A DNA stretch of 64,000 nucleotides, taken from assembly GCA_034520945.1 (NCBI GenBank), contig JAXHNB010000002.1, positions 367,759 through 431,758 of the forward strand. Direction: 5' to 3'. Below, one piece after another: positions 2,340-4,681 of this stretch. The stretch is from Trueperaceae bacterium. Lineage in GTDB: Bacteria; Deinococcota; Deinococci; Deinococcales; Trueperaceae. How positions within the stretch are numbered: position 1 is the stretch's first letter; each line of letters begins with the position of its first letter. The translations under genes and the position numbers were made by a program. The notes below the pieces were generated by a model that saw nothing but the letters and a program-made list of their open reading frames with translations, did no database searches and was not told where the DNA came from.

Positions 2340-2512
2340 GCACCACGAGAACACCCCCGGACGCTCGGGTCCGGGGGTGCGGTGCTCCGCCATGGATTGA
2401 GGGGCCGCGTGGGCGCCCCATTCCAGGAGGCGGGTCCTAGGCTACCCTCGGCGGGCACCTCCACTGGTCGTGCGATGCGATTCGCGTATTTGGACCACCT
2501 CCTTTCCGTGGT
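2340..2512 (-). ncRNA. Candidate structured small RNA with 16-nt complementarity to the 16S rRNA 3' tail
   Basis: Promoter TTGCCG-N18-TAGGGT (2548-2519); GAAAGGAGGTGGTCCA (2506-2491); second GGAGGTG (2462-2456); internal anti-SD GGACCCGCCTCCT (2437-2425); hairpin 2425-2393; terminator hairpin 2379-2352. Confidence 0.55.
2347..2379 (-). terminator. Intrinsic terminator-like hairpin closing the minus-strand small RNA (may also stop bioY)
   Basis: Perfect 11-bp stem CACCCCCGGAC/GTCCGGGGGTG with a 6-nt loop; followed by TTCTC on the minus strand only. Confidence 0.7.
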
Positions 2513-2518
2513 GATGTG

Positions 2519-2548
2519 ACCCTAGCGCACCCGCCCTGGCGGCGGCAA
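2519..2548 (-). promoter_or_regulatory. Sigma70-type promoter for the candidate small RNA
   Basis: -35 TTGCCG (2548-2543), 18-nt spacer, -10 TAGGGT (2524-2519); the same TANNNT form precedes many genes in this window. Confidence 0.55.
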
Positions 2549-2614
2549 GGGCCGGGGCCACCTGCCCGGCACGGGCGGCGACGCCCGCCGATATGCTGTG
2601 GGTGGAGGTTCGAC

Positions 2615-4681
2615 GTGCTCACCGTGTCCGAGAAGCTGGTGTTTCTGGTTCTGGCGTCGTTCTCGTTGGCGTTCGCGTACGGCGGGTTCGAACGCGTGGT
2701 GCGGGCCACCGCCCGTGGAGCGAGGGGCGGAAGCGACCGCACGCGGGGGATGGCGTCGCGCGTGGGGGCGGCGTTGGTGCGTACCCTGTCGCAGGTCACG
2801 GTGTTCCGCGATCGGCCGTGGGTGTCCACGTTCCACGCCGCGGTGTTCTACGGCTTCGTGTTCTACCTGGCGGTGAACCTCGCCGACGTGGCCAAGGGGT
2901 TGGCACCCCACGCCTACACGGCGTGGCTGGGGTCGACGTGGGCCGGGCCCTACCGGCTGGCAGCCGATGTGTTCACGGTGGCGATCCTGTTCGGCATGGC
3001 CTCTCTGTTGGTGCGACGGTTCGTGCTGCGCGATCCGGCGTTGGCGCCGCAGGCGGCGCTGCACCCGCGCGCCGCGGCGGGCGGCATCCGACGCGATTCG
3101 CTGATCGTGGGGACGTTCATCACGTTGCACGTCGGCTTCCGCTTGCTGGGGGAGGGGTTCTTGCTGGCCGCGGAAGGGGGGACCGACGCCTGGCAGCCGT
3201 TCGCCAGCCTGATCGCCGCCGGCGTGGGCGCGGACGAGTCGCGGCGAATCGGGTGGCACGTCGGTTGGTGGGGTGCGATCGGGCTGGTGTTGGCGTTCCT
3301 TCCGTACTTTCCGCGCAGCAAGCATCTGCACCTGCTGGCGGCGCCCGTCAACTTCGCGCTGGAGCGGCGGCGCTCGGATGGGACGCGGATGCCCTCCGGC
3401 GCGCTGGAGCCCTTGGACCTGGAGGACGAATCGGCCGAGACGTTCGGGGCCGAACGCCTCGAGGACCTGCCCTACGCGCAGATCCTGGACGCCTACGCCT
3501 GCATCCAGTGCCACCGCTGCACCGACGCCTGCCCCGCGTACGCGACCGGCAAAGCGCTGTCCCCCTCGGCGCTGGAGATCAACAAGCGCTATGAACTCAC
3601 CCTGGTCGCGGACCGGTTGGCGGCCGGCGAAGCGACCCCCCGGCCGTTGCTGGGGTTCGCGCAGGACGAGGAGCAGATCTGGGCGTGCACCACCTGCGGC
3701 GCCTGCATCGACGCCTGTCCGGTGGGCAACGAGCCGATGTTGGACATCGTCGACATGCGCCGCGAGCGCGTCCTGATGGCCGGGGCGTTTCCCGCCGAGC
3801 TGCAGCAGGCGTTCCGCGGGATCGAGCGCACGGGAAACCCCTGGGGGCTCGGCCAGGATGCCCGCCTGGATTGGGCCGAAGGCATGAACGTTCCCACCGT
3901 CTGGGAGGCGCCCGACTTCGAGGTGCTGTTCTGGGTGGGGTGCGCGGGGGCGTACGATCCGGTGGCGCAGGAGACGACGCGCGCCATGGCGCGGATCCTG
4001 GATCACGCGGGCGTCCGCTACGCGGTGTTGGGCAAGAACGAGACCTGCACCGGCGACCCTGCGCGGCGCGCGGGCAACGAGTACCTGTACTACCAGCTCG
4101 CCACCGAGAACGTGGCCGTGCTGAACGACGCCCTGGCCGACACGGTGCTGGACCCGGCACGGGCCAAGCGCGTGCTGACGACCTGTCCGCACTGCTACAA
4201 CGCGCTGTTGAACGACTACCCGCAGCTCGGCGGCGACTACCAGGTGGTGCACCACACCGAGGTCCTGGACGAGTTGGTGCAGGCCGAACGCCTGCCCCCC
4301 CTCGACCTCGGCCAGGGGACCACCTACCACGACCCGTGCTACCTGGGCCGACACAACGGCGTGTACGACGCACCGCGGCGCGTGTTGGGCGGCGAGGGCG
4401 ACCCCCCGCGCGAGATGCCACGCACCCGCGAGAAGAGCATGTGCTGCGGCGCCGGCGGCGCGCAGTTCTGGAAAGAGGAGTCGCCCGGCCGCGAGAAGGT
4501 CGCCGACGCCCGCATGGCCGAAGCGCGCGCGACCGGGGCGGAGGTGGTGGCATCGGCGTGCCCGTTCTGCAAGTCGATGCTGGGCAGCGCGGCGGGAGAG
4601 GAGGACGGCCCCGAGGTGCTCGACGTGGCGCAGCTCTACGACCGGCGCCTGCGCTCCCTCCAGGATCGGTTGTCTCCGTGA
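2615..4681 (+). CDS. Membrane-anchored Fe-S oxidoreductase (FadF/HdrD-GlpC-like; TM domain, 2x[4Fe-4S], CCG domains)
   Basis: N-terminal TM helices ending PYFPRSKHLH; CIQCHRCTDACP and CTTCGACIDACP; TCPHC, YHDPCYLGRHN, CCGAGG, ACPFC; GGAGG SD before GTG 2615. Confidence 0.9.
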   Translation: MLTVSEKLVFLVLASFSLAFAYGGFERVVRATARGARGGSDRTRGMASRVGAALVRTLSQVTVFRDRPWVSTFHAAVFYGFVFYLAVNLADVAKGLAPHAYTAWLGSTWAGPYRLAADVFTVAILFGMASLLVRRFVLRDPALAPQAALHPRAAAGGIRRDSLIVGTFITLHVGFRLLGEGFLLAAEGGTDAWQPFASLIAAGVGADESRRIGWHVGWWGAIGLVLAFLPYFPRSKHLHLLAAPVNFALERRRSDGTRMPSGALEPLDLEDESAETFGAERLEDLPYAQILDAYACIQCHRCTDACPAYATGKALSPSALEINKRYELTLVADRLAAGEATPRPLLGFAQDEEQIWACTTCGACIDACPVGNEPMLDIVDMRRERVLMAGAFPAELQQAFRGIERTGNPWGLGQDARLDWAEGMNVPTVWEAPDFEVLFWVGCAGAYDPVAQETTRAMARILDHAGVRYAVLGKNETCTGDPARRAGNEYLYYQLATENVAVLNDALADTVLDPARAKRVLTTCPHCYNALLNDYPQLGGDYQVVHHTEVLDELVQAERLPPLDLGQGTTYHDPCYLGRHNGVYDAPRRVLGGEGDPPREMPRTREKSMCCGAGGAQFWKEESPGREKVADARMAEARATGAEVVASACPFCKSMLGSAAGEEDGPEVLDVAQLYDRRLRSLQDRLSP

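Follow-up and report, generated by a model that had tools for sequence, protein, structure and literature searches.

We identified a predicted small RNA of about 168 nt which, at a probability that we put near 0.7, is a stand-alone small mRNA of rre type (ribosome-regulated expression; Hahn et al., RNA Biol 2016/17, PMC5711450) in Deinococcales, with ribosome docking, a near-cognate start codon and the act of translation under selection. The RNA lies on the minus strand of the window, by which we mean the whole 64,000-nucleotide stretch of Trueperaceae DNA that was analysed. Its case rests on an extended Shine-Dalgarno (SD) sequence matching the entire free tail of the 16S rRNA, on a 15-codon frame held open in relatives, and on a covarying fold into which that frame is built.

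Promoter, terminator and extent of the RNA

The predicted transcription unit has the following features.

2543..2548, minus strand: -35-like hexamer TTGCCG, read off the sequence
2519..2524, minus strand: -10 box TAGGGT (TANNNT), with an 18-nt spacer from TTGCCG; conserved in relatives
2345..2512, minus strand: small RNA of about 168 nt, the predicted transcript; full-length match to RF02471
2352..2379, minus strand: terminator hairpin with an 11-bp stem (2379-2369 with 2362-2352) and a 6-nt loop, then UGUUCUCGUG

We placed the 5' end of the RNA at A2512, 7 nt past the -10 hexamer, because of the position of the -10 box, and the 3' end is predicted to fall within the T-rich stretch past the terminator. 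Among the listed sequencing runs, no RNA run was found to contain this stretch, and one run of unspecified type matched 0.23 of its words. A simple consensus scan of 2250-2700 called no promoter and no terminator, the terminator being missed because its T run is weak. It is conservation instead that supports the putative promoter and terminator. A TANNNT box begins 12 nt (29 sequences) or 13 nt (1 sequence) upstream of the first base of ACCAC in 30/30 relatives, and 30/30 likewise have a hairpin rich in G+C with a T-rich tail behind it. The -35 hexamer is argued for weakly within the Deinococcales clade, with TTG at the -35 distance in 3/30 close relatives as against 88/100 homologues of other phyla. 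A pairing of the 3' flank CUCGUGGUG with the 5' end of the RNA, seen in a single-sequence fold, was rejected since the flank is not conserved. The elements named in the preliminary description, namely the promoter hexamers, the SD, the AUA frame, a second GGAGGUG, an anti-SD and the 11-bp stem, were all found where it had put them.

An extended Shine-Dalgarno sequence matching the 16S tail

The match to the ribosome begins within a few nucleotides of the predicted 5' end.

2490..2507, minus strand: extended SD GGAAAGGAGGUGGUCCAA, 18 contiguous pairs (2 G.U) with the 16S tail UUGGAUCACCUCCUUUCU
2506-2491, minus strand: SD core of the preliminary description, GAAAGGAGGUGGUCCA, read off the sequence

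The core had been credited with 16 contiguous pairs to the 16S tail. The source genome's own 16S rRNA terminates in ...GGTTGGATCACCTCCTTTCTA, and when this end was used the long pairing stood while its true length grew to 18 pairs (2507-2490, two G.U), so that a complement of at least 16 nt to the own 16S 3' end, as in the rre mRNAs, is present. With the two G.U pairs set aside, the strictly Watson-Crick runs measure 11 and 5. The predicted energy of the SD:16S duplex is -31.9 kcal/mol, compared with -12.2 for a GGAGG core set between A residues. The pattern ACCAC.G...GGAGGUG.U is invariant across 32 relatives.

Within the 3.47-Mb genome, 18 contiguous pairs with the 16S tail were found at this locus and on the antisense of the 16S gene itself only. 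SD-like strings might have come together by chance in a G+C-rich stretch between genes, about 0.1 such 18-mer being expected in a genome of this size (a base-odds estimate with G.U allowed), but end-to-end conservation in 35/36 genomes of the family and the covarying helices described below refute it, and we give it a negligible share. The near-uniqueness of the complementarity could also be read as the mark of a never-translated non-coding RNA acting as a cap or sponge on the 16S tail, for 30S parking or tail protection, its frame being a structural by-product. The reading frame bears directly on this.

Evidence that the reading frame is under selection

2487..2489, minus strand: near-cognate start AUA, 8 nt past GGAGG; initiation predicted
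2442..2489, minus strand: 15-codon mini-ORF IRESHRTTSGGARRG with UAG (2444-2442); frame held open in relatives
2456..2462, minus strand: second SD-like GGAGGUG, within the ORF, with 16 nt between its AGGU and the stop; invariant in relatives

Among the relatives, stops occupy 0/272 in-frame codons, compared with 16/219 in one and 29/219 in the other of the two remaining frames (45/438 out of frame). Across Deinococcales the spacer between SD and start is 7, 8 or 9 nt, and the ORF is 12-15 codons long and differs by whole codons only. Structure explains neither the missing stops nor why indels come in whole codons when the adjoining spacer changes by single nucleotides. We conclude from these comparisons that the mini-ORF frame is under selection.

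The in-frame codon nearest +8 was ATT in 26, ATA in 14, ATC in 9 and CTG in 4 of the 53 parsed Deinococcales relatives (53/53), and no ATG, GTG or TTG is conserved at SD spacing in these 53. This points to initiation at AUA in the window RNA, which thus has a short ORF right after the 16S complement with a weak start codon at +8, as the rre mRNAs do. Two other candidates were rejected. The GUG within the SD falls out of frame in the 9 sequences with a 7- or 9-nt spacer, and in loci L007, L008 and L015 a stop codon immediately precedes the AUH. The +5 codon is CUG or UUG in some relatives and CAA, CAU, CGA, UAG or UGA in others. Outside Deinococcales, the ORF-bearing loci among the matches listed start with ATG, GTG or TTG in 110/110 cases, and in every ORF-bearing homologue among those matches the stop follows AGGU at 13-16 nt.

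The lack of any Deinococcales copy with a canonical start is what a non-coding sponge would predict, and rreB, the best described rre mRNA, is mostly 30S-bound and barely translated. Against it stand the two regularities of the frame, the canonical starts of the homologues elsewhere, and the unaffected growth on rreB overproduction, from which Hahn et al. argue against simple ribosome titration (PMC5711450). We regard a pure sponge as improbable.

Conservation of a predicted RNA fold rather than of the peptide

2508..2511, minus strand: P1 5' strand CCAC, pairing with GUGG 2464-2461; helix 1, predicted
2493..2497, minus strand: P2 5' strand UGGUC (3' part of the SD), pairing with GACCA 2469-2465; start codon in the loop
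2445..2455, minus strand: 5' strand of the long-range helix, made of the last four sense codons; CCCGCC with GGCGGA 2391-2386, GAGGG with CCCUC 2403-2399
2386..2403, minus strand: 3' strands of the long-range helix (CCCUC ... GGCGGA), identified by covariation
2425..2437, minus strand: internal anti-SD-like GGACCCGCCUCCU, pairing with the SD in a single-sequence fold

Over the whole conserved fold, 91.7% of cells were paired, compared with at most 54.6% when the partner was slid, and changes on both sides occurred at 10/23 pairs; the observed values were reached by 0/500 shuffles. P1 was 98.6% paired with 2 pairs changed on both sides, and P2 was 96.4% paired with changes that were mainly wobble. 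Helices 3 and 4 had 3 and 4 pairs, respectively, changed on both sides. The GGU:ACC part of the proposed structure is weakly supported, with 20-24 of 56 cells unpaired. The equivalent long-range helix in RNAs of the GUGAGGUG type reached at least 9 contiguous pairs in 53/93 sequences, compared with 158/1860 shuffles, and P1 in Actinomycetota covaries as CACG:CGUG or CACA:UGUG, as judged by eye. Simple RNAalifold on a MAFFT alignment returned local helices only and missed the long-range helix. On these covariation patterns, the conserved fold hides both the second SD and the last codons.

The internal anti-SD does not belong to this fold. It had been proposed to drive a conformational switch with the SDs, yet its CGCCUCC is found in 18/51 parsed relatives and is absent from most, which marks it as lineage-specific; a switch between SD and anti-SD is unsupported and was not accepted for the family as a whole. 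A middle hairpin at 2425-2393, proposed alongside it, does appear in the single-sequence fold but conflicts with the covarying pairing of CCCUC 2403-2399 with GAGGG 2449-2445.

We then weighed the fold against the peptide. If the locus were an ordinary small-protein gene, with a functional 15-residue peptide (..TSGGARRG) and a long SD that merely drives its expression, then an open frame kept in register would be expected, as is seen, and so would the C-terminal residues TSGGARRG, which are constant within Deinococcales. The RreB and RreR peptides, too, are conserved within their clades (PMC5711450). Other features fit this reading poorly. The N-terminal half of the peptide varies freely, and the second SD is read in different frames between clades, as GGA GGU in some and GAG GUG in others, giving SGG or EVA. 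Third positions are invariant in AGU GGA GGU GCC .. GGG over 32 sequences, and since the synonymous sites of conserved codons stay fixed over RNA copies whose G+C ranges from 42 to 68%, the constraint probably acts on the RNA. Changes in the last codons track the pairing partner and not the amino acid, as in GGUGGUCAUC:GGUGACCACC. A poor start (AUH or CUG, 53/53) would be odd if the product mattered, and synthetic versions of RreB and RreR were unstructured (PMC5711450). According to the preliminary description, homologues with a canonical AUG and a conserved peptide would have made this an ordinary small-protein gene. Homologues with ATG, GTG or TTG do exist; across the clades compared, the alignments indicate that the peptide is not conserved and the RNA fold is, and a canonical start joined to a peptide conserved beyond the needs of the RNA was not found. 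A small-protein gene is in our view an unlikely explanation.

Distribution and gene neighbourhood

The RNA had been described as an orphan, which it is not. Model R1, which scored 110.9 bits on the window locus (G000:C2:370136-370270), matched 35/36 genomes of the same family and 16/19 of the sister family (order Deinococcales), and there are look-alikes in five or more further phyla. A two-block pattern was found at no fewer than 120 loci in Actinomycetota, Acidobacteriota, Latescibacterota, Heliobacteriaceae and Deinococcales, and a mini-ORF of the same layout was present in 113/120 among the matches listed. In the reciprocal comparison, R1 matched 47/54 ORF-bearing loci of other phyla at E<=0.01, scores that partly stem from the pattern by which the loci were fetched, as 1/7 control loci, a locus with nothing but the search pattern, also matched (23.6 bits). 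Since all SD segments have to match the same 16S tail, they are bound to resemble one another, and the distant look-alikes may have arisen by convergence.

In the window the next downstream gene is bioY, which is convergent. Downstream genes in 30 relatives vary (aminotransferase, BioY, methyltransferase) and lie mostly on the opposite strand. A divergent Fe-S oxidoreductase gene is the upstream neighbour in at least 18/30 relatives; a functional tie to it was rejected as synteny, the gene not being adjacent in other phyla. At two Latescibacterota loci rplM lies downstream on the same strand.

These arrangements bear on a cis-acting leader, in which stalling on the short ORF would control terminator read-through into a downstream gene. 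A strong SD, a short ORF, structure and a terminator together make the classic attenuator layout, and the two rplM loci agree with it. No conserved same-strand downstream gene was found, however, in the window, in the 30 relatives or in other phyla, nor was any neighbour common to all phyla among the loci compared, and no antiterminator alternative was seen. We consider attenuation very unlikely.

A proposed mechanism and its implications

The reading that we favour, a small mRNA of the rre kind, suggests the following course of events. The RNA would arise by minus-strand transcription that begins near 2512 and ends at the terminator near 2345, as the conserved signals imply. Its first 25 nt would dock the 30S subunit, with the unpaired GGAAAGGAGG between P1 and P2 as seed, and the 18-bp pairing with the whole free 16S tail would then melt P2, an idea also proposed for rreB. 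The AUA would thereby be set in the P site, 8 nt downstream of the SD. As a third-position near-cognate of AUG it would initiate rarely and be opposed by IF3, and the RNA would mostly be a 30S-bound species. IF3 discriminates against AUH-type start codons, as is established for the AUU start of infC. When initiation did occur, 15 codons would be read and P1, P2 and the long-range helix unwound, after which the ribosome would halt at UAG, the second SD then lying some 10 nt behind the codon in the P site. Selection would thus preserve ribosome passage through a structured RNA and not the peptide, and the RNA would most likely serve to regulate what becomes of itself on the ribosome, according to how much free 30S or IF3 is available. 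The preliminary description had considered a tightly repressed AUA-initiated micropeptide mRNA binding 30S; this comes close to the comparative data and to rreB, except that the peptide is not conserved between clades.

A wider reading is that the window RNA, Ms_IGR-5, the CC2171/rre RNAs and the look-alikes of Acidobacteriota, Latescibacterota and Heliobacteriaceae are one ancient, nearly pan-bacterial family of ribosome-docking mini-mRNAs, in which the Deinococcales members have an infC-like AUH start and the RNA senses or buffers free 30S and IF3. We regard it as possible but doubtful. In all its members the 5' SD would match the 16S tail in full, RNA pairing would dictate the sequence of the mini-ORF, and a second SD, placed one ribosome-length ahead of the stop, would be covered by an internal ..UCACC.. 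stretch that imitates the 16S tail. The Deinococcales would have swapped a canonical start for the IF3-discriminated AUH design seen in infC, and translation-coupled decay of the RNA would report initiation capacity (free 30S, IF3).

Several points follow. In the accessible part of the literature, rre small mRNAs have been described from Alphaproteobacteria alone, and the same design is now seen in Deinococcales and, by layout, in the further phyla above. One whole order would be using near-cognate starts only, of a class rejected by IF3. A read-out of initiation capacity may be a possible function of rre-type RNAs, whose function Hahn et al. called elusive (PMC5711450).

Comparison with known systems

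Our searches of open-access full text and bioRxiv for a prior description found only the 2016 rre paper and passing Rfam-based listings; those with sequence strings, peptide strings and general terms returned nothing relevant. The rreB and rreR RNAs are small mRNAs of Alphaproteobacteria (Bradyrhizobiaceae/Rhodobacterales), with analogues reported in Caulobacterales (PMC5711450). According to the same source, rreB is 165 nt long with a 17-nt SD and a 14-codon GTG ORF, resides mainly in the 30S/P100 fraction, is weakly translated, and is stabilised when its start codon is changed to a stop (PMC5711450). The window RNA resembles them in size (about 165 nt) and, as the conserved signals predict, in being transcribed as a unit of its own from promoter to terminator, with a predicted 5' end a few nucleotides before an SD that matches the entire free 16S tail (17 nt in rreB, 18 here), with the 5' part of the SD unpaired and its 3' part in a hairpin, with an ORF of 14-18 codons and a weak start codon, and with a variable neighbourhood. 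It differs in its start codon, which is GUG there and AUA here (AUH or CUG across Deinococcales); it is for rreB alone that strong 30S association and weak translation have been demonstrated. Homology to rreB, rreR or CC2171 was not detected by the RF01867 model score or by comparison with Rhodobacter locus L194, an 18-codon GTG frame with AGGAGG 9 nt before its stop that has only the SD and the general layout in common with the window RNA. That the BLASTN search of Hahn et al. returned Alphaproteobacteria only is probably because the internal G.U breaks the perfect complement here.

At gathering thresholds Rfam gave no match in the window. RF01867 (CC2171, a Caulobacter sRNA) scored 14.4 bits (E 0.97, cut-off 75), which is near noise with the SD segment alone aligned. 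The CC2171 consensus opens with cAAcaAucGAAAGGAGGUGAUCCA, and we infer that it is the Caulobacterales rre analogue of Hahn et al. The source genome's own infC appears to start at AUA, 8 nt past GGAGG (GGAGGUGGAGUCC-AUA), and so has the same strong SD, AUH codon and 8-nt spacing as the mini-ORF, but it encodes a protein of about 180 residues.

The closest Rfam entry is RF02471 (Ms_IGR-5, an Actinobacteria sRNA), at 29.2 bits (E 7.3e-5, gathering score 45) over model positions 1-184 of 184 against 2345-2512, minus strand. When the whole genome was scanned with RF02471, the locus was lost at the initial filter and a single unrelated match (E 0.35) came up. A hit to a known Rfam family had been named as a result that would speak against a new RNA, and this full-length sub-threshold match goes part of the way. 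In the literature found, Ms_IGR-5 is listed as an sRNA only, the accessible text making no mention of an ORF or a 16S complement; ribosome-protected reads are reported for its homologues in two mycobacteria. It differs from the window RNA in phylum, in its AUG, GUG or UUG starts and in a second SD read GAG GUG. The SD, the second GAGGUG and the terminator are nevertheless all in register between the two, and the Actinomycetota loci have the promoter, the SD, an ORF of 11-13 codons, a stop 14 nt past AGGU and the long-range helix. The actinobacterial members thus have in common with the window RNA an architecture of SD, ORF, second SD at a fixed distance, helix and terminator, which ties a listed Rfam sRNA to the rre-type design and indicates mycobacteria, Streptomyces and Truepera as tractable models; Ribo-seq data already exist for mycobacteria and Streptomyces.

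Organization and distribution of the RNA locus

The minus-strand gap between bioY and the iron-sulfur oxidoreductase gene contained every feature listed for it in the preliminary description (promoter hexamers, Shine-Dalgarno (SD) sequence, AUA frame, second GGAGGUG, anti-SD and hairpin), confirming that observation as a whole.

Features of the RNA locus (window positions)
bioY: ends 2309, plus strand (Pfam)
Fer4/CCG iron-sulfur oxidoreductase, membrane-anchored: starts near 2616 (Pfam), within 2516-4681, plus strand
-35-like TTGCCG: 2548-2543, minus strand, 18-nt spacer to the -10 box (sequence reading)
-10 box TAGGGT: 2524-2519, minus strand (sequence reading)
ACCAC, 5' start: from 2512, minus strand (sequence reading)
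Extended SD (SD1) GGAAAGGAGGUGGUCCAA: 2507-2490, minus strand (complement of the 16S tail)
AUA near-cognate start: 2489-2487, minus strand, opens mini-ORF IRESHRTTSGGARRG
Second SD GGAGGUG: 2462-2456, minus strand (sequence reading)
Mini-ORF stop UAG: 2444-2442, minus strand (sequence reading)
Internal anti-SD GGACCCGCCUCCU: 2437-2425, minus strand (sequence reading)
Terminator hairpin, 11 bp, then UGUUCUCGUG: 2379-2352, minus strand (sequence reading)

Simple consensus scans of 2250-2700 called neither promoter nor terminator, so that support for both signals comes entirely from conservation: a TANNNT box started 12 or 13 nt 5' of the first base of ACCAC in 30/30 relatives, and a G+C-rich terminator hairpin was common to all 30. 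Just 3' of the terminator, CUCGUGGUG (2341-2349, minus strand) is complementary to the RNA 5' end, with which a single-sequence fold pairs it; it showed no conservation in relatives.

The transcript had been described as an orphan, which proved incorrect. BLASTN with a 191-nt query detected the RNA in 29/36 other genomes of the same family. R1, a covariance model built from 32 sequences and run over 151 genomes of the order with stricter filters, under which weak matches can drop out, matched 35/36 genomes of the same family and 16/19 of a second (the window's genome not counted), and 1/36, 0/23 and 1/36 in the three remaining families. Near-identical RNAs also occur in Trueperaceae / Deinococcales records (L048, L094). 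Since relatives carry different genes downstream, such as an aminotransferase, BioY or a methyltransferase, mostly in convergent orientation, this comparison indicates that the small RNA is a gene of its own and not a leader. At least 18 of 30 relatives (L003-L029 range) have the divergent oxidoreductase gene next to the RNA on its upstream side; in other phyla it was absent as a neighbour among the matches listed.

Complementarity to the 16S rRNA tail

The single 16S gene detected in the window's genome ends in ...GGTTGGATCACCTCCTTTCTA, and the complement in SD1 therefore spans 18 contiguous positions with two G.U pairs, covering the whole free tail. The whole-tail pairing proposed earlier thus stands, with its 16 contiguous pairs corrected to 18. 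The predicted duplex energy is -31.9 kcal/mol, versus -12.2 for a core of GGAGG with A on either side. In 3.47 Mb, 18 contiguous pairs were found at this locus only, leaving aside the 16S antisense strand. Very strong SDs with 14 contiguous pairs lie at C1:12442 and C9:34703 of the same genome (both minus strand; UGGAAAGGAGGUGG and UGGAAAGGAGGUGA); neither covers the whole tail, and the latter has an AUG downstream at the usual distance.

A short open frame with near-cognate starts

The alignment to the model comprised 56 Deinococcales sequences; 53 were parsed and three with variant second-SD strings were left out. The codon nearest +8 of GGAGG and in register with the conserved stop was ATT in 26, ATA in 14, ATC in 9 and CTG in 4 (53/53), following an untranslated spacer of 7 nt in 7, 8 nt in 44 and 9 nt in 2 sequences and opening a frame of whole codons, 12 to 15 in number. 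No stops occurred among 272 codons in the variable part of the frame, versus 16/219 and 29/219 in the other frames; the sequences are related and the counts non-independent, so we give no exact probability. The GUG within the SD is ruled out as a start: sequences with a 7- or 9-nt spacer put it in another frame, and three genomes carry a stop codon immediately 5' of the AUU, AUA or AUC. An open, in-register frame with near-cognate starts throughout one order indicates that the tiny frame is real, bearing out the AUA-opened 15-codon frame proposed earlier. In L183-L189, loci from families f2 and f5 of the order, the +8 codon is CUG (GGUGAUCCAG CUG UUA ..) and not AUU, AUA or AUC; some have GGGGG as SD core, and the frame to UAA/UAG is still maintained.

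Conservation at the RNA level

The N-terminal half of the peptide varies freely among relatives. In the constant part (..AGU GGA GGU GCC CGY CGA GGG UAR), synonymous sites are invariant across 32 sequences, and the sole variable site, CGY, covaries with its pairing partner (C-G 24, U.G 21, U-A 11). Judged by these patterns, the conserved entity is the RNA and not the peptide.

Elements of the supported fold (alignment)
P1: CCAC 2511-2508 with GUGG 2464-2461, minus strand
Unpaired segment GGAAAGGAGG: between P1 and P2, minus strand
P2: UGGUC 2497-2493 with GACCA 2469-2465, minus strand; start codon in the loop
Long-range helix: CCCGCC-GAGGG 2455-2445 with CCCUC 2403-2399 and GGCGGA 2391-2386, minus strand

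In the 56-sequence alignment, which was fitted to the model and is biased in the structure's favour, 91.7% of proposed positions were paired versus at most 54.6% with partners slid; 10/23 pairs had changed on both sides, and 0/500 shuffles reached the observed values. Support for a GGU:ACC extension was poor. Through the long-range helix, the last four sense codons pair with sequence directly 5' of the terminator. The middle hairpin drawn earlier (2425-2393) is incompatible with this helix. Pairing of the internal anti-SD with the SD appeared in the single-sequence fold and failed family-wide, CGCCUCC being present in just 18/51 parsed relatives.

Look-alikes in other phyla

Searching a species-representative genome set for a GGUC-bearing SD together with a second GUG(N)AGGUR returned at least 120 loci, among them many Actinomycetota, Acidobacteriota and Latescibacterota, one Heliobacteriaceae member, and Deinococcales. 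Among the matches listed, to which all counts in this section refer, 113/120 carried a mini-ORF of the same type and the other seven lay inside ordinary coding sequence. Outside Deinococcales the start was canonical in 110/110 ORF-bearing loci (ATG 51, TTG 33, GTG 18 in 102 distinct sequences). Starts lay 6-14 nt 3' of GGAGG, frames had 11-20 codons, and stops fell 13-16 nt 3' of the second-SD AGGU (TAG 90, TGA 7, TAA 5). Depending on the clade, the second SD is read as GAG GUG (..TREVAAR, ..RPGEVAET) or GGA GGU (..GSGGTSR, ..TSGGARRG), so the peptide is not the common feature. In the GUGAGGUG type, a stretch starting GGUG finds its partner in a ..CACC segment further downstream, with at least 9 contiguous pairs in 53/93 sequences versus 158/1860 shuffles; compensatory variants include GGUGGUCAUC:GGUGACCACC.

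R1 matched 47/54 ORF-bearing loci of other phyla at E<=0.01. It also matched 1/7 control loci (23.6 bits), so the search pattern itself supplies part of the score. No neighbour gene was common between phyla among the loci compared. The likeness across phyla may reflect convergence on the common 16S tail.

In two Latescibacterota (L073 942-1238, L105 854-1237) the next gene after the homologous mini-mRNA is rplM (ribosomal protein L13), oriented in the same direction, the sole case in which a leader role is conceivable. The mini-ORFs of L033-L152 (Actinomycetota, Acidobacteriota) stop at UAG in 90/102 distinct sequences; high-G+C genomes usually stop at UGA. The Actinomycetota UAG contributes its G to a local hairpin as well (GCUGC..GCAGC), a rival of the long-range helix.

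Proposed mechanism

Sequence comparison delineates a free-standing gene with a whole-tail SD, an in-register open frame and a fold predicted to bury the frame's end. We propose that a 30S subunit would dock on the unpaired GGAAAGGAGG and then zip through P2, placing AUA in the P site, where initiation would seldom occur and IF3 would oppose it. The fold would open on the occasions when translation takes place, and a ribosome terminating at UAG would have the second SD ~10 nt behind its P-site codon. The RNA would thereby control its own fate on the ribosome, as in the case of the alphaproteobacterial mini-mRNA rreB. The earlier interpretation, a conformational RNA that captures 30S subunits or a repressed micropeptide mRNA, is partly supported, without its orphan status and middle hairpin.

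In the window's genome infC has an apparent AUA start 8 nt after GGAGG (L193 1462-1500; C5 ~699559-699597), in the context GGAGGUGGAGUCC-AUA, or more fully GGGAGGUGGAGUCC AUA GCA AAG GAC AUG AAG ... The in-frame AUG five codons after AUA has no properly spaced SD, and the IF3_N domain begins just 3' of it. With the same spacing, the SD-AUA design thus appears to be in use in this genome, and by analogy suggests that the mini-ORF would respond to IF3 in the same direction as infC.

Comparison with known RNA families

In a permissive local cmscan, Ms_IGR-5 (RF02471, an Actinobacteria sRNA) aligned full-length to 2345-2512 (minus strand) with SD1, the second GAGGUG and the terminator in register; the score, 29.2 bits (E 7.3e-5), fell short of the gathering score of 45, so that the Rfam check recommended earlier gave a full-length but sub-threshold match. 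CC2171 (RF01867) aligned over the SD alone (14.4 bits). The window locus, which reached E 7e-5 with RF02471 in the local scan, was missed by a genome-wide RF02471 search; relatives of this family below threshold are easily overlooked. Papers mentioning Ms_IGR-5 list it as an sRNA, one of them reporting ribosome-protected reads in M. abscessus and M. smegmatis, and CC2171 is expressed in Methylorubrum with its function given as unknown.

The closest known kind is the rre mRNAs, on which we found no follow-up studies in open-access full text and bioRxiv. According to Hahn et al. (RNA Biol 2016/17, PMC5711450), the rreB mRNA measures 165 nt, matches the 16S tail with a perfect 17-nt complement and carries a 14-codon frame opened by GTG; it occurs mostly with 30S subunits, and both its long SD and its GTG start keep translation weak. 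Changing the start codon to a stop stabilised it, overproduction had no growth effect, and its function "remains elusive"; BLASTN analogues were reported from four alphaproteobacterial orders only (PMC5711450). We found the expected 18-codon GTG frame at a Rhodobacter locus, with AGGAGG 9 nt 5' of its stop. The 5' part of the rreB SD was proposed to be an unpaired seed with the rest in a hairpin (PMC5711450), which is the arrangement of P1 and P2 in the window RNA. The window locus is probably of the known rre-type kind; its phylum and near-cognate start are new.
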